Of a stretch of DNA of 47,519 nt, positions 10,264-27,856 are shown in pieces. This DNA is from a virus (lineage: Duplodnaviria > Caudoviricetes): positions 1-47,519 of IMG/VR virus record IMGVR_UViG_3300011443_000020; one strand, given 5' to 3'. The stretch's first letter is position 1; each line of letters starts with the position of its first letter. The translations under genes were made by a program, and so were the position numbers. The notes under the pieces were generated by a model that was given only the letters and a program-made list of their open reading frames with translations, searched no databases and was not told the DNA's origin.

Positions 10264-11181
10264 TCACCGACACGTCAACGCGCCGACCTGCACTTGAATG
10301 CGAGCGAGCGCGTGCTTCCAGTCCGTCTCTTCGGCCGCGAGCTGCGCGAGCTCGGCATGGACCGTCGAGCACAACAGCCGTCGCCGGACCGCCTTCCCGT
10401 CGTCCGTCGGTTCTTCCACCGTCACGAACGGCTGGAACGACGGGCGGGTCAGGAGCGCCGTCTGATACCGGGTCCGCTTCACGCCGATCTTGTGGAGCTC
10501 CCAGGCAATCGGATCCGTCTGCGCCGAGGGGCGCGGCTCGAACCCATACTGGTAGCCCGCCTGGAGCACCGGGGACGCTTCCGGAAGCGCCACATGCCCG
10601 TCTGCGGTCGTGTAGTGCCGCAGGCCGTCCTTGACCGTCATGGTCTGCTTCCCGACGCCCAAGACCTTGCCGAGCAGATACTCGAACCCCGGGCGCTGGT
10701 CCATGTACTCCTGCTGGGTCGCGAGGTGGATCCCGTAGACGCTGATGTCGCGACAGCCTTCGATCACCGCGTGCGCCACGAGGAGCGCCGGGGTGCTCGT
10801 GAAGTAGCGCCCGAAGTGCGCCTCGACCGCGGCCTTGGGGAAGGCATGGGCATTCGGCCACGTCGCGGCCGCCGGATGCTGCGTCAGGTAGTCGGGGTTG
10901 AGAAACACCGGAATCTGCTGGGACGCGAGCCACGCGAGATGCTTCTCCGGCCGGACGTAGTGCCCCGCCGGGATCTGATGGGCGTAGAGCGCCGTGCCCG
11001 GGGTCGGGTGGTAGAACTTGTGGAGCGGGTGGATGTCGTACCACCGGTCCGCGCGCTGAAAGCCCTTCAGCTGATAGGCGTCATTCAGCGACCACACCTG
11101 GAGCGTCGTGTCCGTCCAGGGCACCATTTGCCAGCTCGGCGCCGTCCCGACAATCGCGACCCGCTGCGTCATACGTCTCAC
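10264..11181 (-). CDS. Sialyltransferase/Maf-like (GT29/GT42-type Rossmann fold) glycosyltransferase
   Basis: RVAIVGTAPS (cf. sialylmotif-L CAVVGNG.SL), VWSLN, FTSTPALLVAHAVIEGCRDISVYGIHL, EYMDQRP. Confidence 0.6.
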   Translation of the reverse strand: MRRMTQRVAIVGTAPSWQMVPWTDTTLQVWSLNDAYQLKGFQRADRWYDIHPLHKFYHPTPGTALYAHQIPAGHYVRPEKHLAWLASQQIPVFLNPDYLTQHPAAATWPNAHAFPKAAVEAHFGRYFTSTPALLVAHAVIEGCRDISVYGIHLATQQEYMDQRPGFEYLLGKVLGVGKQTMTVKDGLRHYTTADGHVALPEASPVLQAGYQYGFEPRPSAQTDPIAWELHKIGVKRTRYQTALLTRPSFQPFVTVEEPTDDGKAVRRRLLCSTVHAELAQLAAEETDWKHALARIQVQVGALTCR

Positions 11182-11543
11182 ATCTCCAACAGCACCGCGA
11201 TGGCGGCGTTCGTATCCGGGCTACTGAGATAGACCCGGTTCACGTCCGCCGGTCGCGTCACCTGTAACCGCACAATCTGGCCGCCGATCGCGTTCAGGGG
11301 CGCAAACGGGATCAGGTTGCGCGGCACCTGCCCCAGCCCGTGATTGATCGTGAACTCCCCGTTGACCGACGTACTCGTCACCGCATCGAACCGATAGAGC
11401 CGGGCATTCCGGGCCTTCTCGCCGTCCGAGACACTCCCGAGCTCCCAGTTGTTGCAGAGCTCCCGGATGATCGTCTGCAGCGGCGGTTTGATGTCCGCCG
11501 GCAGGGGGCCGAGCAACGATTCGAGATGCCCGATGTTCGACAT
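11178..11543 (-). CDS. Small tail-associated virion protein
   Basis: FTINHGLGQVP motif typical of tail fibre/needle domains; position. Confidence 0.55.
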   Translation of the reverse strand: MSNIGHLESLLGPLPADIKPPLQTIIRELCNNWELGSVSDGEKARNARLYRFDAVTSTSVNGEFTINHGLGQVPRNLIPFAPLNAIGGQIVRLQVTRPADVNRVYLSSPDTNAAIAVLLEM

Positions 11544-11545: not shown

Positions 11546-12007
11546 CTACGGATTGTAATAGGGAATGACGAACGTCGAGCCATTGATCGTCGTCCGCAGA
11601 TACCCCGCCGGCGTCGCCGGGAGCGCATCCACGCCGCCCGCGGTGCCGGACGACGCGGGGACGACATTCGCGAACACCGCATTGCTGCTGTTGACGTTCC
11701 ACGTGCCGTTCCACGTCCCGAGCAGCGTGCCCACGAACGCCCCGGCGGTGATGACCGTCGCCGAGATGGAACTCGCGGTCATGTTCGTGATGGTCGAGGC
11801 CGTGGCCTGGATCCCGGTGAACGTCGACGTCCCCGCACTGATGTGGCCGGCGGTGATGTTGCTCGAGACGACCGGGGCCGTGCCGTTGAGCAACCCGCCG
11901 CCAATCGCGACCACTTCGTCCTGGATGGCGTTGATGTGCGCCGAGGCAATCGTCTGCCCCGGGGTCTTGTTGCTGAAGCTCGGGGCGGTCGCGGGATAAT
12001 TCGCCAT
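11546..12007 (-). CDS. Short tail fibre or needle-like protein
   Basis: ASAHINAIQDEVVAI anchor followed by 5-residue S/T beta repeats (SSNIT, ASTIT, ASSIS). Confidence 0.55.
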   Translation of the reverse strand: MANYPATAPSFSNKTPGQTIASAHINAIQDEVVAIGGGLLNGTAPVVSSNITAGHISAGTSTFTGIQATASTITNMTASSISATVITAGAFVGTLLGTWNGTWNVNSSNAVFANVVPASSGTAGGVDALPATPAGYLRTTINGSTFVIPYYNP

Positions 12008-13974
12008 TAGTCGTTGAAGTCCCGGCTCACGCTCTCCGGGACCAACCCGGGGGCGTAGCCAAAATGCTTGAAGGCGGACTGGCCCGTATAGATGAGTGTC
12101 TGCACGAGTGTGCGCCCTTCCGCCCGGAGGGGCAAATTCGTGTGCCATTGCCGGCGGCCGGCGCCGGGATAGACCGACACGTCATAGACCGCGGTGTCAT
12201 ACGCCGACATCCCGGCCCCAATGACAATCGTCCGCGGCCCCTGCGGGACGCCGTCCACGAGCGACTCGACGCTCAGCATTCCGCCGTTCGGTTCGTACTC
12301 CCCCCGGACGTCGACCCACCGTCCCTTCCGTGCCCCCAGCGTCAGCCCGGAGCCTTCGTAGGTGGCGACCATGTCCCCGCCGTTGGCACTCGTCCCGACC
12401 GCCTCCTCGAACAGCTGGGGGGTCGACGAGGCCCACGCCAGGAGCCGCCCACGATTGCCCGCGACCGCTTCGGGGCCGTGCCACGGGATGTACCCCACAA
12501 TCGCCCGGTCCGTCTCGGTCCAGCTCAAGGCCCCGCCGTCCTGTTCGCTGCGGTTCAGGTCGAGGATGTACTCCCCGAAGGTCCCGGACGGATACCGCCG
12601 CGGCACCGCGATCCGCACTTCCTTGCTCAGGGCACTGTAGGTCATCGACACCCGGTCGAGATCGGTCACGGCCGCTTGGGTGACCAGATCCCGCCACGCG
12701 GGGTCGATCTCGCGGGTCAGGAGCCGGTCCGACGCGCCGTCGAAGCTGTAGATCCCCGAGGCCCCGGCATGGAGGAGGCTGCTCTCGACGCGCACGGTGG
12801 CGCGGGAGCCGAGGGCGCCTTCCTGACTGCCGAGGGCGGGCCGGACTTCAAAGTCGAGCGAGGTCTGGCCCAGAATGACGTACGCCTTGGTCGCGCCATG
12901 AATGATGAGCGTGTCCCCCACCGCATCGATCGCCCGGATGACGTCGCCCAGATCGAACGGGATGTCGATGTAGAAGAGCGCCGGCCACGACTGCGGCTGG
13001 AAGAGCTGCGTGAAGTGCAGCCGGTTGCCGATGACGCCGTGCCGTGCCCACCACCGGTTCTTCCACACCACCCCGAACGCGAGGACCGGGGCGACGTCGT
13101 GATCGGTCGGCGCCTCGTCGTTGCTCGTCCAGTTCGAGCTCGTGACGAGGAGCGTCGAGGACACGCCGCTCGACATCGCGCCGCTCGAGGCCTTGCGGTG
13201 AATCGTCTCGCCGTTCTGGTTCAGGACGTAGACGACGATCGCATCGACGGCGACGTCCGTGGAATTGGGCACGACCACCCGGATGGCCTGCGTGCTGCCG
13301 GCGGTGCTGACCGTGATCGTCGAGGGCGCCGAGGCGTTCGACTCGTGGAACAGATCCCGGTCCTTGTAGGTGAAGACGACCGAATACGAATTGCCCGACG
13401 ACAACGCGCCGCCGGCCGTGGAGTTGAGCGTCGCAGACGTCGAGGGGGTGATGATGCCGAGTTGTGACCACTCCGCCGTGCTGGCGGACGTGCTTTTGAA
13501 CGGGGCACGGATCCCGTCCATGGCGGCCACCAAATCTCGGTCATGGATGAAACTGATCAACGCGGAGGTCGAGTAGGTCCCCGCCACGATACTCAGGCCG
13601 GTCGACCCGAGGCCCGCATCGCTGACCACCACAATCTGTCCGTTTTGTCCCACCAGGGTAAACGCGGTCGAGTTGAGGTTCGGGAGGTTCGTGTGGAGGT
13701 AGATCCGCTGGCCGCCCTGAATCGGCCCGCTCCCGAAGAACGTCGAGACTAAGACGCGCGAGGACGTGAAGACGGTCGAGAACGCGCGATACCCCGCCCG
13801 GACGGTCAAGGCGCCGGGGGTGCCGAGGCTCCAGTTGACGAGCTTGCGGGACTTCTCGGTCGGGAGGAGCGTCTGGTCCTGGCGGAGATCGAGGCCCCCC
13901 GTGAGGTCGCCCACGGGCACTTGCTGATACGCCGAGCCGGTTTTCGCGGCCGCCGCCCGGGCCTGTTTCGCCAT
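12007..13974 (-). CDS. Tail hub/nozzle protein (P22 gp10 / T7 tubular protein B-like)
   Basis: 655 aa; N-terminal DLTGGLD...N motif; beta-propeller-like WKNRWW...NRLHFT...PQSW; position. Confidence 0.7.
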   Translation of the reverse strand: MAKQARAAAAKTGSAYQQVPVGDLTGGLDLRQDQTLLPTEKSRKLVNWSLGTPGALTVRAGYRAFSTVFTSSRVLVSTFFGSGPIQGGQRIYLHTNLPNLNSTAFTLVGQNGQIVVVSDAGLGSTGLSIVAGTYSTSALISFIHDRDLVAAMDGIRAPFKSTSASTAEWSQLGIITPSTSATLNSTAGGALSSGNSYSVVFTYKDRDLFHESNASAPSTITVSTAGSTQAIRVVVPNSTDVAVDAIVVYVLNQNGETIHRKASSGAMSSGVSSTLLVTSSNWTSNDEAPTDHDVAPVLAFGVVWKNRWWARHGVIGNRLHFTQLFQPQSWPALFYIDIPFDLGDVIRAIDAVGDTLIIHGATKAYVILGQTSLDFEVRPALGSQEGALGSRATVRVESSLLHAGASGIYSFDGASDRLLTREIDPAWRDLVTQAAVTDLDRVSMTYSALSKEVRIAVPRRYPSGTFGEYILDLNRSEQDGGALSWTETDRAIVGYIPWHGPEAVAGNRGRLLAWASSTPQLFEEAVGTSANGGDMVATYEGSGLTLGARKGRWVDVRGEYEPNGGMLSVESLVDGVPQGPRTIVIGAGMSAYDTAVYDVSVYPGAGRRQWHTNLPLRAEGRTLVQTLIYTGQSAFKHFGYAPGLVPESVSRDFND

Positions 13975-13978
13975 GACG

Positions 13979-14440
13979 TCAGATCAGGGGAATCCGGTGC
14001 GTGCCTTCCGGCGCCTCGCCCGGCGCGCGACGGGGATTCCGCGGCGCCCCACCCATCGGGCCGCCTGTCGGCGGGTTCTGCGGGATGATGCGCGGTTTCT
14101 GCGTCGTCGGGAGCGGCAGCGTCGCCCCCGGCTCCTGCGGGTTGGGGACGCCCGATCCGGTCCGACCCGGTCCGGTGGGTGGTCCCGGCAGGCCCATCGC
14201 ATTCGGGGTCTGCGCCCCGAGAATCGCCCGGAGCATGTCGAGCAGCGGGTTCCCCGTGGGATCCGGTGCCCCCATCCCGCCGGGGGCGGTCAGGAGTTGC
14301 TGCGGAATGGGGCTGTTGGCCCCGACGACTTTCGGCAAGCGCAGGCTCAGGAGCTTGATCGCTTCCTGGAGCGGCGGCGCGCCGGTCTTCTGTTGGGTCG
14401 GGTTCTGCGACCCGGGCGCGAACGTGACACCGAGTGCCAT
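13979..14440 (-). CDS. Pro/Gly-rich hypothetical virion-module protein
   Basis: ATG at 14440 coupled to the upstream TGA. Confidence 0.5.
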   Translation of the reverse strand: MALGVTFAPGSQNPTQQKTGAPPLQEAIKLLSLRLPKVVGANSPIPQQLLTAPGGMGAPDPTGNPLLDMLRAILGAQTPNAMGLPGPPTGPGRTGSGVPNPQEPGATLPLPTTQKPRIIPQNPPTGGPMGGAPRNPRRAPGEAPEGTHRIPLI

Positions 14441-14646
14441 CAGGGCCTCTCTTTCTCGCGGAGCGACACCGGGATGGCCGGCAGCGCCAGGGTTTCGACA
14501 TAGGGGCCGGTCGCCTGGCCGCGGAAGGTCGGTGGCGGCGCGGCGACGTGGCGGATGCGATGCTCGCCGTCGAGCGGACAGATCGGCGCGGCGCCCTCGG
14601 AGGCGACCGGGACCGTGTGCCCGCACGCGAAGGTGATCTTGATCAT
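14440..14646 (-). CDS. Small putative zinc-ribbon protein
   Basis: CGH...CPLDGEH; overlaps both neighbours. Confidence 0.5.
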   Translation of the reverse strand: MIKITFACGHTVPVASEGAAPICPLDGEHRIRHVAAPPPTFRGQATGPYVETLALPAIPVSLREKERP

Positions 14647-15437
14647 GTGCGGGGATCCTCAGACGTCCCCCGGCCCCGGAGCGGCCGTTCGCGCAGGTAT
14701 TGCCGGGTCGTGGTGATCGCCGTCCCGCCGCGGGGACGGTTCGCGGTCAGGTACCGCTGCACGTAGCTCAGGAACATCTGCGTCTGCTGCTGCACGCCCT
14801 CGATGTTCTTGCGGAGCTTCTCGAGTTGCGCGGCGGCGTAGTGGACCGCCGCCTGGTGATAGGGCCGCAGATCGTAGCGAATGACCCCGTCCACGGTATA
14901 CGGGACGTCGGTCGCCGCCGTCAGCCGTGGCGGAAAGGCGACATAGTCGACGTGCCCCGAGAACACCGCACTCGAGCCGGACGTGGACGGGCGCGGCCAG
15001 AACGCAATCTGCGTCCCGCCCAGGAGGAACCGATCCGGGGTGCGATACGCCGAGCTCGTCACGAGCTGCTGCGCCTGCCAGTTCGGCTCGTAGACGTCCA
15101 TGTAGCGGAGGCTGCGCTGCGGCAGTTCTTCGCCGGCGAGGACGCGGACCTGGGTGCTCCCGAGCGAACTGTAGATGAAGAACGCCGGCCCGCGTTCGCT
15201 CGCCAACCGCACGTAGTCGGTCGAGCCGACGTCGGTCGACAGGAGATTCCAGAAGAGCGCCGTCGACGTCACGGTCCATTGCCGCGAGCGGCGGAAGCAT
15301 TCCGTGAGATCCGCAAATTCGCGGATGCCCTCGTTGACCGCCGCTTCCCGGCGCGCGGTGGTGAAGAGGACGGTCGAATCCTCCGACCCGAGCTCGATGT
15401 CGAGGAGGCGTCCGGTGAGCGTGGAGAGATCGGGCAT
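14643..15437 (-). CDS. Head-tail adaptor (P22 gp4 / tubular protein A-like)
   Basis: Helical N-terminus AAVNEGIREFADLTEC, central beta region ending IAFWPRP, C-terminal YHQAAVHYAAAQL. Confidence 0.65.
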   Translation of the reverse strand: MPDLSTLTGRLLDIELGSEDSTVLFTTARREAAVNEGIREFADLTECFRRSRQWTVTSTALFWNLLSTDVGSTDYVRLASERGPAFFIYSSLGSTQVRVLAGEELPQRSLRYMDVYEPNWQAQQLVTSSAYRTPDRFLLGGTQIAFWPRPSTSGSSAVFSGHVDYVAFPPRLTAATDVPYTVDGVIRYDLRPYHQAAVHYAAAQLEKLRKNIEGVQQQTQMFLSYVQRYLTANRPRGGTAITTTRQYLRERPLRGRGTSEDPRT

Positions 15438-16144
15438 CAGCGGCCCACTCCTAACGTCATCAGCCGCGACGGAATCACCACCGCACCGCCGCCGCCATCG
15501 AACGCCAGATCCATCGAGAACTCCACCCACGGATTGTCTTGACTCGTGCCCGTTTCGTCTTCCGCCAGGTCAGAGGCGGAGTTGTCCCCGAACTCGATGC
15601 GCGAAAAGCGTGACGAGGTGTACTGCAACGCGTGAAACCACCCGATCTCCACGATCAGCCGATCCCCGGCACTCACGCCCGTGCTCGCGAGGTTGAGTGT
15701 GAAATCGTCGGTGCCTTCTTCTAGGCGACGGTTCGTATACGTCGTCGGCGTGACGACGAACCCCGGCGGGCTGGCCTCGGTATCGGATTTGGTAATGGCG
15801 AGAATTTCCGTGACGGAGCTCCCCGTGCTATCACATTTCGCCACGCGGACCGTCGGCACCTGCGATCCCCCAGACCCACTATTGCACTGGCCGCGGAGCA
15901 CCCCCTTGATCGTGCCGCTGATCGTCTGCGCCGCGAGGGCCGCACTGATGAACTGCCGCAACAAGATATCGCCGGCCGCCCGGCTATCGCCCACGTCCCC
16001 GTTGCCAATGTTCGCAAACGCGGAGCTAATGCGGGTCGTCACCATGTCCACCCGTGCCAGCGCCGGATCTTGCACCCACCCGGACCCATAGGCGGGGCTA
16101 ATGCTCGGCGTGCCGGTGGTGGGCAGATAGAAGCGGGTCGCCAC
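15437..16144 (-). CDS. Beta-sandwich virion / receptor-binding accessory protein
   Basis: 235 aa, beta-rich, VSAGDRLIVEI; lies in the tail module. Confidence 0.5.
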   Translation of the reverse strand: MATRFYLPTTGTPSISPAYGSGWVQDPALARVDMVTTRISSAFANIGNGDVGDSRAAGDILLRQFISAALAAQTISGTIKGVLRGQCNSGSGGSQVPTVRVAKCDSTGSSVTEILAITKSDTEASPPGFVVTPTTYTNRRLEEGTDDFTLNLASTGVSAGDRLIVEIGWFHALQYTSSRFSRIEFGDNSASDLAEDETGTSQDNPWVEFSMDLAFDGGGGAVVIPSRLMTLGVGR

Positions 16145-16338
16145 TAGGGCTCATCCTCCGATCTAATCGGCAGGGAGATGACATCCAGCACAATCTGTAA
16201 CGCGCGATGGTCCTGTGCGTAACTGAATGTAATCTGCATATCCCGACGCTCGAGCGCTGGGTCTTGCACCCACCCAGGCCCACAGGCTGGGCTAATATTC
16301 GGAGTCACAGGGGTGGGCAGATAGAAGCGGGTCGCCAT
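16144..16338 (-). CDS. Short paralog or remnant sharing its first ~34 aa with the downstream gene
   Basis: MATRFYLPTPVTPNISPACGPGWVQDPAL versus MATRFYLPTTGTPSISPAYGSGWVQDPAL. Confidence 0.5.
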   Translation of the reverse strand: MATRFYLPTPVTPNISPACGPGWVQDPALERRDMQITFSYAQDHRALQIVLDVISLPIRSEDEP

Positions 16339-16340
16339 TT

Positions 16341-17786
16341 TTACTCCGGTCCAATAACTTCACTACCTGTAATATAGCAGCCCGCGGGAATCACGGTGTC
16401 ATCCGACCCGCCGATGCTATAGATGGCCCGCCCAATCGTCAACGCGGGCGATCCCCCCTGGAGATGGAAATCGTCACTCGCATAGTTCACGAACAGGGGA
16501 TCAGACCCGATGATGGAATCATCCGATCCGCCGTCGTCGTCGTCCTGGTCGTAGGTGGCGCCCTGCCACGACGCGAAGGAAATATCCGTCCCCGCGGTGT
16601 TCGCGAAATCCGTCGGTGTCTCGTAATAGACATTGTGCTCGGCGTCGAACCGGGCCTTGTCGGTGAAATTGGACGCCCCGCCGTCGATGTTCCATAGCAC
16701 ATGCGTGGCGATGTCGCGCACGATGTTGTTCCACCAGAGATGCCCCGCGTTGGCCTGGAAGGTGTTCGCCGTGCGAATGAGTAGGGCCGCATCGCAGCCG
16801 TCCACGGTATTGTTGAAGATCTTGACGTGCATCGGCGAGGTCGCATCCGAGAACAGGCGCATCGCAAACGCCGTCGTCGTCTCACCCACGTAATGGATCA
16901 CGCCGTCACGCACGATATTCTGATAGATCAGGCAGGGATCGCCGGAGGTGTGCGGCGCCCGGTGAATCACGATTCCCGTGCTGTTGTCATAGCAGAGGTT
17001 GTAACGGATCCACACCGGACCCGTGTTGTTCGTGGCGCCGTCATGCGGGGCCTTCTCGTGAATGGCGCTGCCATTCCCGAAGAAGGTGTTGTGCTCGATG
17101 ATGATGTTGCCAGTCGTGTAAATTTCAATCCCGCTCGCGTTCTCCACGTTGTTGGCTTCGTCGTTGCTAAAGCCAGAGATCGTGCAGTTCCGGATCTCGA
17201 CCGCCTCGGAGGTGGACATAAAAATCCCGACATGGTTGTCGGCCGGCAGCACCGTCGGATCGGCGATGATGCGCAACCCGTCGAAAATGATGTTGGTGGC
17301 GTCCAGCAAGCGGATGACAAACGCCCCGCCGCTCGTCGCCGAGGGACAATCGGCCTCATCAATCCAGAATTCTCCCGCCCAGGTGATGTAATCCCGCGAC
17401 ACCGCGCCGATGTAGGGACCGTCACTGCTGCTGTAGATGAGCGTCACCGTGCCGACGGCGCGGAAGGTAATCGGGTTCCCCGCCGTGCCGGAGTTGACGG
17501 GGTTACAATACACGTCGGCCCCGTCGCCGGTGCCGACACCACTGTAGGTGCCCGCGGCGATGCTCACGATATCCCCTGCGACCGCCGCCTGCGCGGACAC
17601 ATCAGCCCCGCCGCCGGGCGCGACCCCGCGTGCCGCGCGGTAGATCGTCGCCCATTGGACACTGCCCGCCCCAGCCCGCACCTGCGCAATCGTGTTGCTG
17701 TCGGATCCGGTGGAGGCATTGACCCAGAGGGTCGCGCCCTCGCCGGTACTCGTCCCACGCGTCCGCAGCCGGAACCGCACCGGCAC
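16341..17786 (-). CDS. Parallel beta-helix tailspike / depolymerase
   Basis: AGDIVSIAAGTY, SGTAGNPITFRA, asparagine-ladder rungs, DPLFV...DFHLQGGSPA. Confidence 0.8.
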   Translation of the reverse strand: MPVRFRLRTRGTSTGEGATLWVNASTGSDSNTIAQVRAGAGSVQWATIYRAARGVAPGGGADVSAQAAVAGDIVSIAAGTYSGVGTGDGADVYCNPVNSGTAGNPITFRAVGTVTLIYSSSDGPYIGAVSRDYITWAGEFWIDEADCPSATSGGAFVIRLLDATNIIFDGLRIIADPTVLPADNHVGIFMSTSEAVEIRNCTISGFSNDEANNVENASGIEIYTTGNIIIEHNTFFGNGSAIHEKAPHDGATNNTGPVWIRYNLCYDNSTGIVIHRAPHTSGDPCLIYQNIVRDGVIHYVGETTTAFAMRLFSDATSPMHVKIFNNTVDGCDAALLIRTANTFQANAGHLWWNNIVRDIATHVLWNIDGGASNFTDKARFDAEHNVYYETPTDFANTAGTDISFASWQGATYDQDDDDGGSDDSIIGSDPLFVNYASDDFHLQGGSPALTIGRAIYSIGGSDDTVIPAGCYITGSEVIGPE

Positions 17787-17788
17787 GG

Positions 17789-19339
17789 TTACGGCTCCTG
17801 CACGTAGCTGAGACTGATGCGCGCCTGAATCGCGGTGGACGCGGATTCAATCCGGACGTTCAACGCGTTCTGGTTGTCCGTCCGGAACAGGAACCCGGGC
17901 GGTGGGATGGCGAGATTCGCCCCGAAGACGCCCGAGGACAGGATGATGCCCCAGCGGTCAATCGCCAGGCTCGACATGAAGACGAGGGTGCTGTGGTTGC
18001 CCGACGTCGAGCAGCCCACGAAGTACGCATGGACCTTGATGACCTGCCCCGCGACCGACGAGATGAGCGAGTAGACGGCGGTCGAGTTCGAGCTCGTGAC
18101 CGTCACCGTGGTCGACTGGACCGTCGAGGGCACCTGGCGGACGTGGAGCCCCAAGACGCCGGAGAGCGGCGTGCCCGTCGAGCCCTCGACCGCCCCACCG
18201 GAGGACGTCGTGGCCCGACTGAGGACCGTCCAGGCGGTACTGTTCGGGGTGACGGTGGCCTGGAGGTCCCCGGCCGTCGATTGCGCGACGCGCACCGAGG
18301 CCGTCGACACCGGCGACACGATCACGGTCCCCGCGAGGCTCGACACGTTCACCGTCGTCGAGGCCGCGGACCCCGCGACGACGTTGACGGGCAGGCCTTG
18401 CGAGATCCCGACGATCCGCATGGTCGCATTTGAGCCGTTGTCGAACGTGAGCGCCGGTCCCGCGAGATTGCTCGCGGTCGAGGCGTCCGTGTAGTCCGTC
18501 CCAGGCGTCAGGAACGCCGTGCCATTCGACAACCGCACCGGCAGATAGAGCGAACTGTTGCTCGAGGCGTTGCCGTTCACCGTGACGACCGTGGACGCCG
18601 CGGATCCCGCCACGACGTTGACCGGGAACCCCAACGTCGAGCTCACCGCCCGCATCGTGGCGTTCGAGCCGTTGTCGAACGTCAAGGTCGGACCCGCCAA
18701 CCCACTCGCGGTCGAGCCGCTCACATAATCCGTGGCCGGCGACAGGAACGCGGTCCCGTTCGTCAGCCGGACCGGCAGATAGACCGAGCTGTTGCTCGAG
18801 GTGTTGCCGTTGACCGTCACCGAGGTGTCCCCGGCGACCGATCCCGCGACGACGTTGACGCGAATCGCGCTGTTGGTCGAATCCGCGAACGGCGCGGGCA
18901 TCCGGACGACCTGCCCATACGCCGTCGAGGCCGGGGCGACCGCATTGACCACCGCGACGACCGCCGTCGACGCGTCGCGGTCCGCGATCCGCATCAGGCC
19001 GTTCAGATCGGTGTAGGTCGACTGCGAGACGGTCGCGAGGAGGTCCGCGGCGGACGATTGCGCGACCCGGACCGACGCGGTCGACACCGGAGACACGACG
19101 ACCGTGCCGGCGACGCTCGAAATGATGGGGTCGGCGATCCGGACGACCAGGCCAAAGGCGGTCGAGGCCGGCGCGGCCGCGAGGACCGCCGACAAGGCAT
19201 TCGTCGTCTCCGGCGACCCGACAACCATGACCTCGCGGAGGACGGTCGTCGAATTGTGGTCGAGTTGAATGGCGTCCAACCGGTGCGTCGTGGTCGACGC
19301 GGCGGGTTGGGAGAGCCCGATGTCGTTGTGCGTCGCCAT
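17789..19339 (-). CDS. Ser/Thr-rich fibrous virion protein with internal repeats
   Basis: Two ~79-aa tandem units (VNVVAGS...YLPVRL.NGTAFL.P.TDY...LAGP.LTFDNGSNATMR) plus a duplicated SS.AGTV.VSPVSTASVRVAQS. Confidence 0.7.
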   Translation of the reverse strand: MATHNDIGLSQPAASTTTHRLDAIQLDHNSTTVLREVMVVGSPETTNALSAVLAAAPASTAFGLVVRIADPIISSVAGTVVVSPVSTASVRVAQSSAADLLATVSQSTYTDLNGLMRIADRDASTAVVAVVNAVAPASTAYGQVVRMPAPFADSTNSAIRVNVVAGSVAGDTSVTVNGNTSSNSSVYLPVRLTNGTAFLSPATDYVSGSTASGLAGPTLTFDNGSNATMRAVSSTLGFPVNVVAGSAASTVVTVNGNASSNSSLYLPVRLSNGTAFLTPGTDYTDASTASNLAGPALTFDNGSNATMRIVGISQGLPVNVVAGSAASTTVNVSSLAGTVIVSPVSTASVRVAQSTAGDLQATVTPNSTAWTVLSRATTSSGGAVEGSTGTPLSGVLGLHVRQVPSTVQSTTVTVTSSNSTAVYSLISSVAGQVIKVHAYFVGCSTSGNHSTLVFMSSLAIDRWGIILSSGVFGANLAIPPPGFLFRTDNQNALNVRIESASTAIQARISLSYVQEP

Positions 19340-19501
19340 TTAGCCCCCGAGCGGGACGACCGCGAACAAAATGAACCCCATCGCGGTGATCGTGGTGATT
19401 TGCCAGGTGACATACCCGCCCGATCCCGAGGCGCCCGGCAGAATGGGCACCTCCGGCGCTTGCGTCTGCCAATAGTGACTGTGGAGGGCGACGGACGGCA
19501 T
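19340..19501 (-). CDS. 53-aa protein with a hydrophobic C-terminus
   Basis: Hand-translated MPSVALHSHYWQ...MGFILFAVVPLGG; fills the gap exactly, TAATG overlap. Confidence 0.45.
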   Translation of the reverse strand: MPSVALHSHYWQTQAPEVPILPGASGSGGYVTWQITTITAMGFILFAVVPLGG

Positions 19502-19872
19502 TAGAGCATCGGCTCCGCTTCGATCGAGGCGGCGGCCGCGGCCGTGAAGCTCGAGCCGACCCGCACCCGGAGGCGATCCCCGGGGTTGATCATGTAGCCG
19601 CTGACGAACTGCGACGTCTGATTCGACCCCGTGAAGACCGTCTGCACGTCAAGAATGGCCGTCGAGCCCAGGCCCGTCGAGGAACAGTGCTCGAGGCGGT
19701 AGATCGCCCCGGTCGAGGCCCCGACACGCCAGAAGACGCGATAGAGGACCTCGCGCGGCGACACCTGCGCGAACTGCGTCGAATCGATCTCCGCAATCAG
19801 GGTCGCGGTACTCGGATCGGTCGCCGTGGCCTGCGTCGATTTGATCGGCTTGTTCCCATAGATGTGGAACAT
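19501..19872 (-). CDS. Small beta-rich virion protein
   Basis: INPGDRLRVRV; follows the capsid genes. Confidence 0.55.
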   Translation of the reverse strand: MFHIYGNKPIKSTQATATDPSTATLIAEIDSTQFAQVSPREVLYRVFWRVGASTGAIYRLEHCSSTGLGSTAILDVQTVFTGSNQTSQFVSGYMINPGDRLRVRVGSSFTAAAAASIEAEPML

Positions 19873-19876
19873 GCCG

Positions 19877-20317
19877 TTACTCCGCGCGCGTCGAGCTGAC
19901 GAAGCGCATGTAGCCGTAGAGCGAGATCGTCACGTTGCTCGAGATGCCGCCCCCCGAGGACATGGCGATGCGGAAGAACACCGTGGACCCGCTCGCGATG
20001 CGGGCGCCTTCGTATTCCCCGCCGTCCGGCGTGATCGTGTTGTAGGTGTTCTGCCCGGCGAGGGACGATCCGAACGTCACCGAGCTCAGGACGGTGGAAT
20101 TCGCGAGCACGGACGCCCCGAAGGTCGTCGAGCCCGTCGAACCGCGGAACACATTGAAGCCCGTCGCCAGCCAATCTTCCCCGGCCGGCACAATCGCCGC
20201 CGAGACGACCGTCGAGATGCCATCCGACGCGGCGCCGGACGACAACTCATGCACGCGGCAGGTATGCAGCAGCGACTTCGCCCCGTAGACGGGGCCGGAA
20301 TACGCGGTCTTGCCCAT
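19877..20317 (-). CDS. Capsid decoration / head fibre-like protein
   Basis: N-terminal T.YSGPV motif, immediately downstream of the major capsid gene. Confidence 0.55.
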   Translation of the reverse strand: MGKTAYSGPVYGAKSLLHTCRVHELSSGAASDGISTVVSAAIVPAGEDWLATGFNVFRGSTGSTTFGASVLANSTVLSSVTFGSSLAGQNTYNTITPDGGEYEGARIASGSTVFFRIAMSSGGGISSNVTISLYGYMRFVSSTRAE

Positions 20318-20401
20318 GATGACCTCACAATCGACGGACGGCGGGCAGGTGTGAGCCCACGCGGGCAGATCCGCGCACCCGCCGTCCCCGAGAACCCTCT
20401 G

Positions 20402-21322
20402 CTAGGCGCCCTGCGTGCCGTACACCCCGACCCAGGTCCACGCGCCGAGCGAGAACCGGTGCCGGGTCTTGAGAATGCGGTTCGACGTCCGCGGATCCAT
20501 CACCACCGGCTCCGTGCTGATCGGCACGCGCCGATAGAACGTCAACCCGTGGCCCCCCTTGTCCGCCGAGAGGACAAACCAGGCGTCCTGGTCCGTCAGC
20601 CGGGGATTGACCACCAGCGTCCACGAGCGGCGCGCCTTGATCGGGTTCCGGTCGTTGTCCGCACTCCCCGGGAGGCCGGAGCTGTTCAACAGCCGGTCCG
20701 CGAGGAATTCGAGCGCCGGCGGGACGAGCAGAATCAACGACTGCACGGGCGCCGCGAGATGGCCGGCTTCGTCCTTCCACTCGTTCTGCACGTCGACAAT
20801 CGCATTCGTCAGCGACGTCGCCGACAAGTCGGCATCCGTCGACGGCCGGTTGCGCGCCGTGCCGCCGCCCTTGAGGACGTGCGCCGTCGAGAACAGCGTC
20901 ACCCCGTCCGGCGTGAGCTCGGTGCCGAAGCCGTTGTTGAACACGTTGGCCGCCCGGCCCTCCTCGACATACCGTGCCGAGAACGCCAGCCACTGCCCCG
21001 CCTGGTTCAGGATGCCTTCCGTGTCGTCTTCAAATGCCGTCTGCGTCACCTCGAACCCCAGCCCGTTTTCCGTGTGGGTGAAGTCCTTGGTGAAGCCCGG
21101 CCGCAGCGAATCCATCACGAAGGGCTCGCCTTCCGGCTTGCTCACCGTGTCGCCGAAGGGCACATACGTCATGACCCGCTCGAACTTCCGATCGGAGGTC
21201 TTGACGGTGTAGTACTTCGTGTAGATGCGCGGCAGTTCACTCAGTCGGTCTTTCATGACCGAGAAGAACGCCTTGTCGATGTTGTCGTTGAGTTCGGGGA
21301 ACGTTCCTCGCAGCTGTGCCAT
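20402..21322 (-). CDS. Major capsid protein (HK97 fold, Mu gpT-like)
   Basis: TSDRKFE, KPEG, AANVFNNGF, DGVTLFSTAH, LLVPPALEF, LTDQDAWF, GVYGTQGA. Confidence 0.9.
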   Translation of the reverse strand: MAQLRGTFPELNDNIDKAFFSVMKDRLSELPRIYTKYYTVKTSDRKFERVMTYVPFGDTVSKPEGEPFVMDSLRPGFTKDFTHTENGLGFEVTQTAFEDDTEGILNQAGQWLAFSARYVEEGRAANVFNNGFGTELTPDGVTLFSTAHVLKGGGTARNRPSTDADLSATSLTNAIVDVQNEWKDEAGHLAAPVQSLILLVPPALEFLADRLLNSSGLPGSADNDRNPIKARRSWTLVVNPRLTDQDAWFVLSADKGGHGLTFYRRVPISTEPVVMDPRTSNRILKTRHRFSLGAWTWVGVYGTQGA

Positions 21323-21334
21323 GATCCTGTGTCC

Positions 21335-21874
21335 TTAGCGATAGAACGCGAGGAACGCGTTCGAGGAGACGAGGGTGGACGGGGCCGTGAAGTTCGGCAG
21401 GAAGCGGAACGCGACGCGTCCGCCCGTATCCCCGATGTTATCCAGCAATTGGGTCACGAGCACCCGGTTGTCCGCCGCCGTCGACGCCGCGTTGTCCACC
21501 CAGTGGATGTTCAACGTCGAGTCGAACTGCAGCGTCCGCGCCGACCCGACCAGCGTATCGACCAGGGCGCCGCCCTTCGTGTACGCCGAGAATTCCTGCA
21601 GCGGGTTCGCTTCGTACACCGGGACCGTCGTGACCCCGACCGTCGCCGTCGAGAGCGCCTCGCCGGCAATGCCGACCGTGTTGAACGCCCCGACCGCCGT
21701 CGACGCCTTCACCCGATGGCCGTTCGTCGACGCATCGAGCGTCACGATCCGGCCGACCTGAATCGCCGCCGAGCTCACCCCCGTCGACACCTCGTAGTGC
21801 CGGACGTGAAACGCGCCCCACGGCGTCCGATAGGGCTTCACATGCGAGCCCGAGGACAGCGTGATGTCTGCCAT
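21335..21874 (-). CDS. Capsid cement / decoration protein
   Basis: 179-aa beta-rich gene directly upstream of the major capsid gene; GGGGAG RBS. Confidence 0.6.
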   Translation of the reverse strand: MADITLSSGSHVKPYRTPWGAFHVRHYEVSTGVSSAAIQVGRIVTLDASTNGHRVKASTAVGAFNTVGIAGEALSTATVGVTTVPVYEANPLQEFSAYTKGGALVDTLVGSARTLQFDSTLNIHWVDNAASTAADNRVLVTQLLDNIGDTGGRVAFRFLPNFTAPSTLVSSNAFLAFYR

Positions 21875-22369: not shown

Positions 22370-22654
22370 TCATGGTTCCCATCGTTCGTCGGCCTCCTCC
22401 GCCGCACACCGCGCACAATACGTCCCCGCACACGACGCCATGCACCGCCGGCACCGTCCGTCTTCGACCACAGGGAGGGGCTCGGGCGTCGGCTCAACCA
22501 CGGGCTCCGGCATCGGCTCGGGGATCGGGTCCGGCGTCTCAATCACCGGGGACGGCATCGGACGCTCGACGACGGGCACCGGCCGCGGCGTCGGGTGCTT
22601 TTTCACGGCCGCCTTCTTTGCCACGGGATGTTTCACCAATCGCGTCTTCGCCAT
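22370..22654 (-). CDS. Lys-rich / Pro-Glu-rich protein with a C-terminal CxxC...CxxC
   Basis: ATG overlaps the terL stop; CRRC and CARC. Confidence 0.5.
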   Translation of the reverse strand: MAKTRLVKHPVAKKAAVKKHPTPRPVPVVERPMPSPVIETPDPIPEPMPEPVVEPTPEPLPVVEDGRCRRCMASCAGTYCARCAAEEADERWEP

Positions 22655-24201
22655 CAATACCCCCCTCTGGAGAGTCCCCCGCGCCGCCACCGATACGGCT
22701 CCAGCACGTCCACCTGACTCCGCCGCACCATTGCCGCCTCCCGCCGCGCATGATGCCGCTCCACTTCCCCCATCGTCGGCTGCGCCCCCCCGAAGTTTAA
22801 CTCCAAATACTCCAAACAGTTCTGCCCGTGCTCGTACCACCCATCCTTCTTCGGCTTCCGCACCTGCTTACTTCCCACACTCACTAGGTGCTCGTCCCAC
22901 ACATACCCCGCCTCCAACCCGTCCGTCAGAAACGGCCAACTCTTCGCCCCGTCCGGTCCCACTATCTGCCACCGCTCCGGATTCGCCTCGACCCCAAACG
23001 CCTCCCCCTGCACCGTCCGCCGCCGCATATGCCCCGCGATCCGCTCCACCATCGCCCCCCGCACGTCCGGCGCATTCGCATTCCCCACCCACCGCGCCGA
23101 AAACCCATGCTCCGCCAGCACCTTCACCCCGTTGTTCCGCACCCCCTGCGAATTGTCGTGACTCCCCGCCGGATCACAACACGTCCACACCTCGTCCACC
23201 CCCGGAAACCACCGCGCCCGATACTGCTTCGCGATCGGCGCAAAGTCCTCCAGATACAGGTTCTGCCCCATCACCCCACCCAAGACCCGCAACTCCCCAT
23301 ACGGCGTGAACTGCCCCCAGACAATGCACGGATGGTGCTTCCCGAAGTCAATCGCCTCCAGCAACGGCAGCATCGGATTCACCGACAACATCCGGACATG
23401 GATCGCCCGGTTGAACATCGGCACCAGTCCCCGCTCCGCGTCCCCCCCATACACCGGCGTCCCAATGACGTTCAACCCCCGCTTCCCGAGCACCGCACTC
23501 CGATGCTTCGGATGACTCGCGGGATACGCCAGAATCAGGTTCTCGATCGTCTCGGGTGGAATGTTGTGCGCATTCGCATGGATCGGCGCCGAGTAGTACG
23601 TCCGCCCCTTGAGATGGTTGTCCTCCGGGAATTCCCGGGCGAGCCAATGGTTCTCGTCCGGCGGATTCGGCGTCAGCAGCAGTTGATGGGGCACCCCCGA
23701 CTGTGACAACCGTCCAATCAACTCCAGAAACACGTCGTGCGGGAGCTCTTCGCTCTGGTCGTTGTAGACCATCCCGAGCGTCAGTCCACGCAGCTTCGCG
23801 TATCGCGTCACCTGATCCTGGGCCTTGAGCCCCATGATGTAGACCAGACTCCCATTGGGCAGCAGGTCGTACATCTCATCCGGTTTCCAGACCGGTTGGA
23901 TCCCCGCCTGCGACAAGACGTGGCGCCAGACCGGTTTCAGCTTCGATTGCGTATCCCCATCTCCATACCGGCAGATCAAGGCCTTCAGCCCGGGATGCGC
24001 CATGCACGCATTGAACACTTTCCAGCAAGCCGCCGTCGTCTTCCCGGACCGGAACGCCCCTTCCAGGTCGACCAGACGCGTCGTATCGAGCATGAAGTCA
24101 GAGATGACCCCTGCCCAAACCATACGGTGGACGCGTTCGGACGCGGAGGTACCCGCCTGTGGCAAGGTGAGACTTTTACTAGGCTTTTTGCGGAACGGCA
24201 C
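22654..24201 (-). CDS. terL: Terminase large subunit
   Basis: Walker A GAFRSGKTT, Walker B-like MVYNDQSEE, LLLTPNP coupling motif, RNase H-like AIDFG and CDPAG; start uncertain (24201 or 24123). Confidence 0.9.
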   Translation of the reverse strand: MPFRKKPSKSLTLPQAGTSASERVHRMVWAGVISDFMLDTTRLVDLEGAFRSGKTTAACWKVFNACMAHPGLKALICRYGDGDTQSKLKPVWRHVLSQAGIQPVWKPDEMYDLLPNGSLVYIMGLKAQDQVTRYAKLRGLTLGMVYNDQSEELPHDVFLELIGRLSQSGVPHQLLLTPNPPDENHWLAREFPEDNHLKGRTYYSAPIHANAHNIPPETIENLILAYPASHPKHRSAVLGKRGLNVIGTPVYGGDAERGLVPMFNRAIHVRMLSVNPMLPLLEAIDFGKHHPCIVWGQFTPYGELRVLGGVMGQNLYLEDFAPIAKQYRARWFPGVDEVWTCCDPAGSHDNSQGVRNNGVKVLAEHGFSARWVGNANAPDVRGAMVERIAGHMRRRTVQGEAFGVEANPERWQIVGPDGAKSWPFLTDGLEAGYVWDEHLVSVGSKQVRKPKKDGWYEHGQNCLEYLELNFGGAQPTMGEVERHHARREAAMVRRSQVDVLEPYRWRRGGLSRGGY

Positions 24202-24407
24202 TAGGAACCTAGGCCGAGAAAGGCGCACCACACGCGTCGAATCGACCGGAGGCAGCCCCGCGACCCGGCCGCAAGGTACTCCAGACTCCACCGATACTCC
24301 TGCAGCACGGCCGCATCCGGCCGCCAGACCTCACGATGGGCCTCTGCAAGGCGAGCCGAGATGTCAAACCGCTCTTCGCGGGCATCCGAGTGCAAGGGAT
24401 CCGGCAT
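24201..24407 (-). CDS. Hypothetical protein
   Basis: Stop overlaps the proposed terL start. Confidence 0.35.
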   Translation of the reverse strand: MPDPLHSDAREERFDISARLAEAHREVWRPDAAVLQEYRWSLEYLAAGSRGCLRSIRRVWCAFLGLGS

Positions 24408-24438
24408 CTATCCAGCCTGTGGCAGCATGAGCCTTTCC

Positions 24439-24684
24439 CTAACGTTTTGACGGATTCGCCTCGAGCAGGAACGGCGGCCGTTCGGTCGAAAACTGCAGCC
24501 GGCAGCCGTCCGGATGGGGCGCAATCCAGACTTCGCGGCCCACGGCGCCAAAATGTAGGCCGAGCCAGGTCACGTCTGGCGCCGAACTACTCTCAGCGAA
24601 CACGGAACGGGGCGCGCGCCAATGTTCGGCGGCCGTAACGGTCCCATGCACCAGCTGTGCGAGCGTACTGCTCTCGTTTTTCAT
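24439..24684 (-). CDS. Hypothetical protein
   Basis: 81-aa ORF between terS and terL. Confidence 0.35.
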   Translation of the reverse strand: MKNESSTLAQLVHGTVTAAEHWRAPRSVFAESSSAPDVTWLGLHFGAVGREVWIAPHPDGCRLQFSTERPPFLLEANPSKR

Positions 24685-24751
24685 GCCGTTTTCGCCCCCA
24701 TTCCGTCATCCGAAAAGCGAAAGTGTGCGGAATCCCCAACAAAACAGGCCT

Positions 24752-24779
24752 GAGTCTGATAAGTAGGATTATGTTAACT
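24752..24779 (+). other. dif-like XerCD recombination site
   Basis: GAGTCTGATAA-GTAGGA-TTATGTTAACT: 11-6-11 layout; right arm matches the E. coli XerD arm TTATGTTAAAT at 10/11; intergenic. Confidence 0.8.
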
Positions 24780-24782
24780 GAG

Positions 24783-25181
24783 CTAAGTCTGTGATACGTC
24801 GATGGTTACGCTGCTCGAGGCGATAGGAAGGCGAATCAGCGGGGTTACGCTGCTGCTGCTCTGTCTGTGCTCGTGAACCACACGCACCAAATCGGTAAAC
24901 GTGCCTCTGACGTCGAGATCCATTGTGAGCGCAGGCGGACCGATGACCCTATCCCATAAACTGTTTAAGGCCTGTATGTTACCCGCTTTGGCCGCCTTTA
25001 GATGGGCCTTGATCAAGGGCTCAAGTTCCTGCAGCACACGCGCGCGAAAGGCGCGAATCGCGCTGATCTTGTCCATCGTGGACTCATTCAGCCGGCCGAG
25101 TGGTCTGCCAGCTCCAGGTCGTTTACCGCCTTTTCGCTTGGTTTTCGGCCGTTCTGGCAGCTCGAGCGGAATATCCTTCAT
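24783..25181 (-). CDS. Putative terminase small subunit
   Basis: GGKRPGAGRP motif, AKAGNIQAL...WDRVIGPP; upstream of terL. Confidence 0.7.
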   Translation of the reverse strand: MKDIPLELPERPKTKRKGGKRPGAGRPLGRLNESTMDKISAIRAFRARVLQELEPLIKAHLKAAKAGNIQALNSLWDRVIGPPALTMDLDVRGTFTDLVRVVHEHRQSSSSVTPLIRLPIASSSVTIDVSQT

Positions 25182-25252
25182 GCTGTTTTCTGAATAATCG
25201 ACGCAAATCGACAGAAAATCAATCGGAAACCTAAAAACAATCAACTTCCCTC

Positions 25253-25281
25253 TTGACGTCCTGATTATCAGTCAGTATCAT
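25253..25281 (+). promoter_or_regulatory. Sigma70-type promoter for the plus-strand island
   Basis: TTGACG-17 nt-TATCAT; the spacer holds the palindrome CTGAT-T-ATCAG. Confidence 0.7.
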
Positions 25282-25314
25282 CATACGTATAGGTTGATTA
25301 AAGGGAGAGACGCT

Positions 25315-25422
25315 ATGGACAGATATGACATCGCAATCGGCGCGGCGCTCCTCGGTTCGTTCGTTCTGGTGACTTGTGCGCTCGTTATTGGGTATGTCGT
25401 GACGGCCGGTCAAATCCCGTAA
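25315..25422 (+). CDS. 35-aa single-TM protein
   Basis: Hand-translated MDRYDIAIGAALLGSFVLVTCALVIGYVVTAGQIP; AAGGGAG RBS. Confidence 0.55.
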   Translation: MDRYDIAIGAALLGSFVLVTCALVIGYVVTAGQIP

Positions 25423-25466
25423 ATCTCAACGGGTTCATCACTCTGTCCTGAAAGGGATGCAAGACG

Positions 25467-26219
25467 ATGACAAAAGCAAACGGGTCCATTCTCTATCGGG
25501 GTCCCTCGATGTTAGACGGTCAGCCGATCGTCGTGGTCGCAACCGGACTGGCGCACAAGTCTCACAATCCCAAGACCGGCGATATGGTCCAAACCTACAT
25601 TATGCCGGACCGGATTCGACCATTGGACGCGTCCCGAACGGGTCAAGATGCGTCCGTGTGCGGGGACTGCAAGCATCGGCCGGCGAATCTCGGAACCTGT
25701 TACGTGACACTCGTGCATGGTCCGAACGCCGTCCACCGGACACTCCAACATGACGGCTACCGTTACGCGTCCTGGGCCGATTTGGAATCCTTCGGAGAGA
25801 ACCGCTACGTCCGTCTGGGCACATGGGGCGACCCGATGGCGGTTCCGGTGGCCGTCTGGCGCGCGCTGCTGGCAAAATCCCTCGGTCATACGGGCTACAC
25901 CCATCAATGGGCGAATCCCACGATTGACCGCGCGCAACATGCCGGGATCTGTGATCTGGTGATGGCGTCCGTGGATACGCCAGCAGAGGCACGGGATGCA
26001 CGCGCGGCCGGGTATCGCTACTTCAGGGTTCGGCAGGCTGGGGATACGCTGCTCGACAACGAGATTATCTGCCCTGCCAGCAGCGAAGCGAACTACCGCC
26101 GCACCTGCCAAACCTGCAACGCGTGCAATGGGTCGGTTCGGTCATCACGCGCATCAATCGCGATCAACGTCCACGGCAATGGCGCCAAAAAATTCAGCCT
26201 TCGTGAGGTATCTGCATGA
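25467..26219 (+). CDS. Conserved Cys-rich phage protein, possibly an Fe-S / radical-SAM-like fold
   Basis: NPKTGDMVQT, CGDC...CYV, VRLGTWGDP, TGYTHQW, MASVD, CPAS...CQTCNAC...HG. Confidence 0.6.
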   Translation: MTKANGSILYRGPSMLDGQPIVVVATGLAHKSHNPKTGDMVQTYIMPDRIRPLDASRTGQDASVCGDCKHRPANLGTCYVTLVHGPNAVHRTLQHDGYRYASWADLESFGENRYVRLGTWGDPMAVPVAVWRALLAKSLGHTGYTHQWANPTIDRAQHAGICDLVMASVDTPAEARDARAAGYRYFRVRQAGDTLLDNEIICPASSEANYRRTCQTCNACNGSVRSSRASIAINVHGNGAKKFSLREVSA

Positions 26220-26422
26220 ACGCCGAACCGCTCGTATTTATCCGCGCCACACGCGTCTATTCCGTTCCGCCCGTCTGTTCCGCACAATGGACCCCAGCAG
26301 ACTGGGAGCGATCTTCGCGTCTGGTATATGAGCCACTAACACTCACCATACTCGGGATGACGTGGCGCGCCACAGGCGAACGCGACGCGCGTGGGCAATT
26401 GCTGTACGAGGTGTCACGATGA
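26216..26422 (+). CDS. Hypothetical protein
   Basis: ATGA-coupled on both sides. Confidence 0.5.
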   Translation: MNAEPLVFIRATRVYSVPPVCSAQWTPADWERSSRLVYEPLTLTILGMTWRATGERDARGQLLYEVSR

Positions 26423-26715
26423 CCGCTCACGATACGCTCTCCGCCATACAGGCTCGCACCTTGCCGATCGTGGGCGATGTCGCCCTACTCTCAGCAAAAG
26501 AGCTCGACCGCCAAATCCAAGCGCGCGCGCGACGCATCGAAGCCTTGACCATCGACCGCGCGGCCCTGGTCGCACAGTCCGAGCACTACAACCGGGCCGG
26601 CATGTACAAATCCGCCAAATCGAACACGGCAGGCGCGGTGAACCTGACCCGGGCGATCGTCGACTACGCGCGCGAGCTCGCCGTACTGGCGCGAGAATTG
26701 GAACACCGATCATGA
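26419..26715 (+). CDS. Hypothetical helical protein
   Basis: ATGA-coupled on both sides. Confidence 0.5.
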   Translation: MTAHDTLSAIQARTLPIVGDVALLSAKELDRQIQARARRIEALTIDRAALVAQSEHYNRAGMYKSAKSNTAGAVNLTRAIVDYARELAVLARELEHRS

Positions 26716-27154: not shown

Positions 27155-27269
27155 CGTAGACTCTCACTTGATGGCCGAACGGCTATCAGGAGATACTAGA
27201 CGGGCCTCCGGGGTCATCCCGTGAGGCCCGTTCACACGTACATCTATTGACGAACGGGGAGATCTGTCT

Positions 27270-27581: not shown

Positions 27582-27597
27582 TGTTCCCCGTGGAACA
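27582..27597. promoter_or_regulatory. parS-like centromere site
   Basis: TGTTCCCCGTGGAACA, one mismatch from the palindromic chromosomal parS variant TGTTCCACGTGGAACA; intergenic. Confidence 0.65.
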
Positions 27598-27837: not shown

Positions 27838-27856
27838 AGGGCCTCCAGCGGTTCAG

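Follow-up and report, generated by a model that had tools for sequence, protein, structure and literature searches.

Glycosylation of the virion has been shown for few tailed phages. Cst sialyltransferases act on sugar acceptors, and the autotransporter heptosyltransferases TibC/AAH, which are GT9-like in fold, modify serines of beta-rich proteins. PMC11339370 describes Maf proteins, which put nonulosonic acids on Ser/Thr of flagellin and combine N-terminal Rossmann-like, central and C-terminal helical domains, with a PF01973 domain that resembles CstII. Mycobacteriophages glycosylate the C-termini of capsid and tail-tube proteins via phage glycosyltransferases (Freeman et al. 2023, as cited in PMC12619734, PMC11256854 and PMC10877033). 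In the literature covered, which leaves out most subscription papers, we found no report of a Maf-type phage virion system or of a Ser-Thr sequon. Here we analysed IMGVR_UViG_3300011443_000020, the record of an uncultured podovirus-type phage, whose whole 47.5-kb length we call the window. Several of its predicted virion proteins carry an excess of the dipeptide Ser-Thr (ST), and the same genome encodes a sugar cassette and a protein of predicted Maf/CstII-type fold. The explanation that we favour with reasonable confidence is phage-encoded O-glycosylation of virion serines, probably with a nonulosonic acid; ST pairs in the tail nozzle, the adaptor and the predicted cement and fibre proteins are likely acceptor sites of the phage enzyme.

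Window proteins were tested one by one by comparing observed ST with the expected count and by a shuffle p-value, the reversed dipeptide TS serving as control. The ST-bearing and control proteins are listed below with their counts (expected numbers refer to ST).

11178-11543, minus strand: 121-aa conserved tail-region protein (ST 1)
11546-12007, minus strand: 153-aa probable short tail fibre, so named from its place after the nozzle (ST 3)
12007-13974, minus strand: podovirus tail nozzle/hub, from a model of pLDDT 90, Foldseek and its place after the adaptor (ST 15, TS 8, expected 5.5, p 0.0004)
14643-15437, minus strand: head-tail adaptor of SU10 type, an orthologue of which matches PF24175 SU10_adaptor at E 1e-18 (ST 7, TS 4, expected 2.1, p 0.002)
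16341-17786, minus strand: 481-aa beta-helix spike-like protein (PF13229 E 7e-9; phrog_7458 tail spike)
17789-19339, minus strand: 516-aa repeat-containing Ser/Thr/Val/Ala-rich protein, presumed from position to be a fibre (ST 23, TS 5, expected 8.8, p 0.0002)
19501-19872, minus strand: 123-aa protein, presumed from position to be a virion accessory (ST 6, TS 1, expected 1.5, p 0.001)
19877-20317, minus strand: 146-aa protein, presumed from position to be a virion accessory (ST 6, TS 0, expected 2.5, p 0.02)
20402-21322, minus strand: major capsid protein (PF25209 E 3e-16)
21335-21874, minus strand: 179-aa protein, probably capsid cement (decoration), encoded directly upstream of the major capsid gene, with orthologues that match PF09956 weakly (ST 7, TS 0, expected 1.8, p 0.001)

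Pooled over seven of these proteins, 11546-12007 included, ST occurred 67 times against 24.5 expected (z 8.6) and ranked first of 400 dipeptides, while in 23 other window proteins it fell outside the top eight; the portal has two ST and the ejection-type proteins 0, 0 and 2. Shuffling within segments of 10-40 residues gave a pooled mean of 26-29, and none of 2000 shuffles went beyond 45, which rules out low-complexity clustering as the cause. Thus, the observation of the first-pass annotation that ST far exceeds TS beyond what composition explains stands, and its hand counts of both dipeptides all reproduce in a recount per protein. The zero given there for the terminase large subunit holds from the ATG at 24093; the longest open reading frame contains one ST, which precedes that ATG.

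Relatives were compared with the window as sets of nozzles, records and genomes. The nozzle set comprised 107 distinct sequences (175 before duplicates were removed), of which 48 came with the gene for the Maf-fold protein, 17 without it on at least 5 kb read, and 42 from contigs ending too soon. Presence or absence of cassette genes was counted in 37 long records (20 with, 17 without); 25 of these, picked for completeness, form with the window a set of 26 genomes. We call cassette genomes the 17 that encode both the Maf-fold protein (10264-11172) and a GT9-like protein (28592-29641), and cassette-free the remaining nine. The genomes are kin, so p-values for gene-motif co-occurrence overstate.

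In four shared families (nozzle, adaptor, probable cement and one tail protein) the observed/expected ratio (O/E) of ST was 1.90-3.11 in 17/17 cassette genomes and 0.57-1.32 in 9/9 cassette-free genomes. The excess is thus absent from homologues in genomes lacking the two transferases, the comparison by which the earlier proposal was to be checked. Over whole proteomes, ST ranked first among dipeptides in the 17 cassette genomes (1511 versus 1014) and below the top 12 in the nine others. Nozzles with the Maf-fold gene contained 8-20 ST (O/E 2.19; TS 1.02), those without it 2-6 (O/E 1.12), and the gene lay 0.2-3.3 kb from the nozzle gene in 48/48 loci. Given as ST observed/expected, with the cassette versus without, family figures were 209/92.8 versus 40/32.8 for the nozzle, 72/35.5 versus 7/8.8 for the adaptor, 107/35.2 versus 2/5.5 for the cement, 27/12.9 versus 1/3.4 for the 121-aa protein and 60/31.8 versus 31/26.7 for the 153-aa protein. 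The 516-aa family (183/73.7) was present in 11 cassette genomes only and the 146-aa family (57/23.0) in nine only; the 123-aa family gave 47/14.6, and the major capsid family, an internal control, 25/28.1. The bias extends to ten protein families within one genome group. Several cement ST sit in insertions or in a C-terminal extension missing from two cassette-free orthologues. Serine made up 10.8% of ST-enriched families with the cassette versus 6.3% without it, compared with 4.9% versus 4.8% in nine core control families. In the latter the median O/E of Ser-[Ser/Thr] was 0.79 with the cassette versus 1.24 without, a hint of motif avoidance in cassette genomes. Across 69 distant phage capsid loci ST O/E was 0.60-1.58, ruling out a general trait of phage structural regions.

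The Maf-fold gene and the sugar cassette are as follows.

10264-11172, minus strand: 302-aa protein of predicted Maf/CstII/MptE-type fold amid tail genes (fold in residues 1-203, followed by a C-terminal helical hairpin)
28592-29641, minus strand: 349-aa candidate GT9-like (GT-B) glycosyltransferase (PF01075 E 0.004, below cut-off)
29574-30317, minus strand: NeuA-type acylneuraminate cytidylyltransferase (PF02348 E 3e-16)
30314-30712, minus strand: cupin, putative sugar isomerase (PF07883, PF01050)
30705-31613, minus strand: NeuB-type nonulosonate synthase (PF03102 E 2e-70)
31606-32397, minus strand: 263-aa sugar-cassette protein, possibly a transferase, with no Pfam match and with relatives in some bacterial sugar loci
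32394-33425, minus strand: nucleotidyltransferase-methyltransferase fusion (PF01467 E 4e-10, PF13489 E 9e-11)
35508-36155, minus strand: FkbM-type methyltransferase, possibly for glycan methylation (PF05050 E 9e-13)

Among the long records the Maf-fold gene was found in 20/20 versus 0/17, the GT9-like gene in 19/20 versus 0/17 and NeuB in 17/20 versus 0/17. At the genome level only the Maf-fold and GT9-like families reached 17/17 versus 0/9, followed by the nucleotidyltransferase-methyltransferase (16/17), the 263-aa protein (15/17), NeuA (13/17), the cupin (12/17) and the FkbM methyltransferase (4/17), each versus 0/9. The gene order of the window is unlike that of its relatives: the terminase (22654-24291) and a plus-strand block (~24300-28600) split the sugar cassette (28592-38110) from the cement gene, which the cassette adjoins in L002, L005 and L011. 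A GroES-like gene (window 34722-35105) is kept in all 26 genomes, and PEP-CTERM proteins occur in two cassette-free genomes (L350:9363-10052; L353:2343-3917).

The model of 10264-11172 (pLDDT 95) makes it a candidate initiating Ser O-glycosyltransferase. Its best Foldseek match was CstII (1ro7; E 1.4e-4, prob 1.0, TM 0.33/0.40), and VIA placed residues 1-203 on residues 271-498 of the Maf chain 5mu5 (Z 10.3, root-mean-square deviation 3.1 over 160), with Cst-I (2p56) at Z 10.0, MptE (8sd5) at 9.3 and SteA at 8.6. BFVD matches include DUF115/MptE-like viral proteins; its Atlas clusters are 94-100% viral, and the nearest named one (score 0.82) carries PF01973 in 16% of members. At sequence level there was no Pfam match at E 0.01, and thus no PF01973 (Maf_flag10/MptE-like); a PDB search with a 124-row profile found no match to Maf, PDB searches with three alignments gave nothing useful, and the family had no match in 301 genomes of class Vicinamibacteria, a search run without its own positive control but with a profile that works elsewhere. 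Second, more distant Maf-fold copies occur at L306:1660-2295 (G004) and L008:2-499, the latter directly preceding NeuB, and a distant Maf-fold gene lies near terminase and portal genes of another phage type (L141:4176-9576), where the small part covered has ST 10 versus 5.0 expected and TS 0. The GT9-like protein showed TM 0.58-0.63 to GT9-bearing Atlas clusters. Most of its relatives belong to sugar loci of Acidobacteriota, where NeuB is often a neighbour, and the closest are Vicinamibacterales sugar-locus genes, a lead to Vicinamibacterales as host that comes from this gene only. The nucleotidyltransferase of 32394-33425 matches a heptose adenylyltransferase PHROG.

Among the substrates the nozzle is best defined: 12007-13974 has the fold and the place after the adaptor that characterise T7 gp12, P22 gp10 and SU10 nozzles, its best Foldseek matches being tail chains of Pa223, A4, SU10, HRP29, T7 and P22 gp10 (E 3e-22 to 6e-17). 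Cassette-free cement orthologues match PF09956 Phage_cement_2 at E 0.022 and 0.057, below the cut-off, and a PDB search with the cement alignment gave no match. The 123-, 146-, 153- and 516-aa proteins matched no Pfam or PHROG family.

The ST signal resides at the protein level. TCG codes the serine in 50/67 window ST sites; across the 17 cassette genomes, TCG makes up 347/859 ST serines versus 1000/2560 other serines, and conserved nozzle ST columns use both TCN and AGY codons (42 and 22 at position 238, window numbering). In the window SI, SM and SK occur less often than expected and the other frames show no rise in TCGA, so the enrichment outlasts the TCGA check set for it. SS is also in excess (548 versus 379), and in the same alignment columns ST exchanges mostly with SS; the motif is therefore best written Ser-[Thr>Ser], Ser being its most constrained residue. 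It is preceded by Asn, Gly or Asp and followed by Ala, Gly or Val, with few charged residues close by; the families used here were selected after their excess was known. ST occupied nozzle position 273 in 74/80 versus 0/27 sequences, position 102 in 64 versus 1 and position 238 in 64 versus 4 of the same two groups. Nozzle sites concentrate in residues 50-300 (14/15 of those in the window nozzle in residues 66-274), and 747/936 fall in 19 columns. Parsimony was uninformative about ongoing gain of new sites (changes ST 339, TS 248, but TA 407, SA 338). N-X-S/T stood at 393 versus 258 in enriched families, 98 of these being N-S-T, and at 84 versus 69 in cassette-free orthologues; as the main signal it is weak once N-S-T is set aside, although it is raised in 11546-12007 (7 versus 3.0) and 17789-19339 (15 versus 7.5), with p-values of 0.004 and 0.018 for two window proteins.

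An unrelated siphovirus group offers, by analogy and in small numbers, parallel support for the principle that motif and cassette go together. Gly-Ser-Pro, a motif chosen after the fact, is the top tripeptide in two related siphovirus genomes (32 versus 8.4), whereas the 26 podoviruses have 1-10 versus 3-5 expected. By gene map, 31 tail-tube loci divided into 22 cassette-bearing (the Maf-like gene being seen in 14, the rest ending early), three cassette-free, four unassigned and two duplicates; Gly-Ser-Pro numbered 52 versus 11.3 in the 22 and 2 versus 1.8 in the three. One tail-tube loop has Ser-Pro in 23/27 distinct tubes, and the four without it are the three cassette-free tubes, which occupy three separate places on the tail-tube tree, and one with Thr. 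The siphovirus Maf-like gene matches PF01973 weakly (E 0.002), and in L445 and L446 it stands alone together with Ser-Pro loops. In loci L435-L465 (records G039, G040) head-tail connector genes flank a cassette of variable make-up with Maf-like, glycosyltransferase and methyltransferase genes, and Gly-Ser-Pro is enriched in virion proteins of this group.

Several observations weigh against glycosylation by the Maf-fold enzyme. The motif had been attributed to outward-facing virion proteins at large, which is true of a subset only, because three proteins in the same range are not enriched: the major capsid protein (ST 3, TS 3, expected 1.7), the beta-helix protein 16341-17786 (ST 4, TS 5, expected 3.2) and the 235-aa product of 15437-16144 (ST 2, TS 2, expected 2.7). 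Neither of the last two has a relative among 108 loci of the group; accessory proteins 1264-3054 and 3051-4457, beyond the range first read, are also at expectation. (15437-16144 and the adjoining reading frame 16144-16338 share nearly identical first 35 residues, a short duplication.) The cement, fibre and accessory labels are weak, resting on position and weak matches. Maf, Cst and the kinase MptE are tied as fold matches, and Mafs have no known sequon according to PMC11339370. On the trees of nozzle (0.98), capsid (0.88) and adaptor (0.95) the cassette-free podoviruses come together in a single clade, and on that of the portal in a grade with weak support. Negatives forming one clade on three trees leave about one phylogenetic event, which the capsid tree would read as a loss and the portal tree as a gain. 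At the edges the classes overlap: L283 has the gene at O/E 1.33, L157 and L274 lack it at 1.92, L267 is a further edge case, and L254 (ST 9), on a contig that ends too soon for a gene call, belongs to the negative clade. A search for other transferases in the cassette-free set covered 130 non-core proteins from 7/9 genomes; G025 has a true PF01973 gene (L342:13346-14296) with a methyltransferase, and G002 a GT2-like gene (L333:16044-16787) among structural genes, both without ST excess. In the complete genome G018 the excess persists although NeuB, NeuA and the nucleotidyltransferase are all missing. ST is not in excess in rare nozzle columns (ST 76, TS 141), ST serines of the nozzle are in coil no more often than its other serines (10/15 and 33/52), and siphoviruses that carry distant relatives of both transferases among their head genes have no ST excess (observed/expected 53/65 and 68/78). 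The record of G005, where NeuB is also absent, starts with a bipA/typA gene (L302:1522-3249), probably host flank, which may explain that absence; its BipA is 47-49% identical to those of four genomes of different groups and is uninformative on the host.

A DNA-level TCGA or TCGAC bias could yield ST, and TCG at the window sites first pointed to it; the lack of a group-wide TCG preference, the mixture of TCN and AGY at one column, and the fact that neither other frames nor other A-starting codons are raised leave it largely refuted and hardly credible. ST might instead be a structural turn or strand-capping habit, with no modification at all, passed down within a single lineage of beta proteins rich in Ser. 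The residues favoured before ST and the concentration of many sites in conserved columns suit such a habit, but orthologues of the same families do without the sites, the bias is common to ten families of one genome group, and distant phage loci do not show it, so that we judge this quite unlikely.

A host enzyme or other host factor could read the motif, cassette and motif co-occurring through the common host range of one lineage. The contrast being about one event, the BipA of G005 giving no pointer to the host, and the need that G018 would have for a donor sugar from its host all leave room for this, yet the Maf-fold gene keeps close to the nozzle gene in every locus, the GC ranges of cassette and cassette-free genomes overlap, and the motif of the siphovirus group is missing from its three cassette-free members, which are separate from one another; we regard it as very unlikely. 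Finally, the cassette may write the tag with a group other than a directly linked nonulosonate, such as a heptose-type sugar added by the GT9-like protein or, in keeping with the MptE-like fold, a phospho-linked group, NeuB and NeuA then serving capping or host-surface conversion. In its favour, protein O-heptosyltransferases of GT9-like type (TibC/AAH, for example) are known, the GT9-like gene follows the motif as closely as the Maf-fold gene, MptE ties with Maf by Z, the nucleotidyltransferase resembles a heptose adenylyltransferase, and G018 manages without NeuB and NeuA. Against it, the bacterial GT9-like relatives sit in sugar loci, often beside NeuB, without ST excess, the Vicinamibacteria search, itself without a positive control, found no Maf-fold relative, and the siphoviruses L445 and L446 pair a lone Maf-like gene with Ser-Pro loops. 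On balance this seems unlikely.

Under phage-encoded O-glycosylation, NeuB and NeuA would make the cytidine monophosphate (CMP)-nonulosonate in the host cytoplasm, and 10264-11172 would recognise Ser followed by Thr/Ser in a small-residue, uncharged context and glycosylate the Ser; the GT9-like protein is less likely to be the enzyme that does so. A second transferase, and likewise the methyltransferases, may extend or cap the glycan, and the resulting sugar coat could shield the particle or adjust the charge of its surface. The motif would be avoided in internal and channel proteins, and the major capsid protein would be spared, the cement carrying the sugars of the head. Cement proteins of this kind number about one per capsid subunit; were the 179-aa protein such a cement, its seven sites alone would amount to a few thousand per head. 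The O-glycosylation sequon of the original proposal thus gains comparative support from the cassette-linked excess, the loss of sites without the cassette and the nonulosonate pathway in the genome, but in the form Ser-[Thr/Ser] rather than strict ST, and with the major capsid and accessory spike-like proteins excluded. If so, a phage group sugar-coats its particle by a nonulosonate pathway that it encodes itself, genome sequences suffice to recognise the acceptor motif, and this small enzyme becomes a candidate tool for sialylating tagged proteins in the cytoplasm. More tentatively, pared-down transferases of Maf type may recur among tailed phages, reading short Ser sequons particular to each lineage (Ser-Thr, Gly-Ser-Pro) and placing sialic-acid-like sugars at thousands of positions on the particle; enzyme specificity would then be imprinted on the virion proteome, making cytoplasmic sialylation sequence-programmable through a two-residue tag.

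Compared with described systems, 10264-11172 is Maf-like by predicted fold and context but does not have the domain content of Maf. It shares with Maf of Magnetospirillum (5mu5) and Clostridium botulinum (PMC11339370) the predicted central-domain fold, an accompanying nonulosonate synthase and CMP-transferase in the phage genome (NeuB in 17/20 records with the Maf-fold gene), Ser/Thr in a small or apolar context and a putative cytoplasmic action on the subunit of a structural polymer. Unlike the three-domain Maf it has 302 aa with a central-type domain and a helical hairpin only, and no PF01973 match, and its proposed substrates are several unrelated virion proteins with a defined Ser-[Thr/Ser] motif instead of flagellin. 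The GT42 enzymes CstII and Cst-I (1ro7, 2p56) are the best Foldseek matches, and the phage genome has the CMP-sialic acid donor pathway, but identity is 12-14% and TM 0.33/0.40. The GT9-like protein may be likened to TibC/AAH in fold class, its closest relatives being Vicinamibacterales sugar-locus genes. As in the mycobacteriophages, candidate glycosyltransferases that would modify the particle are phage-encoded; unlike their C-terminal glycans, the candidate sites here are many, internal and on accessory and tail proteins with the capsid spared, and the candidate enzyme is of Maf type and accompanied by a nonulosonate pathway.

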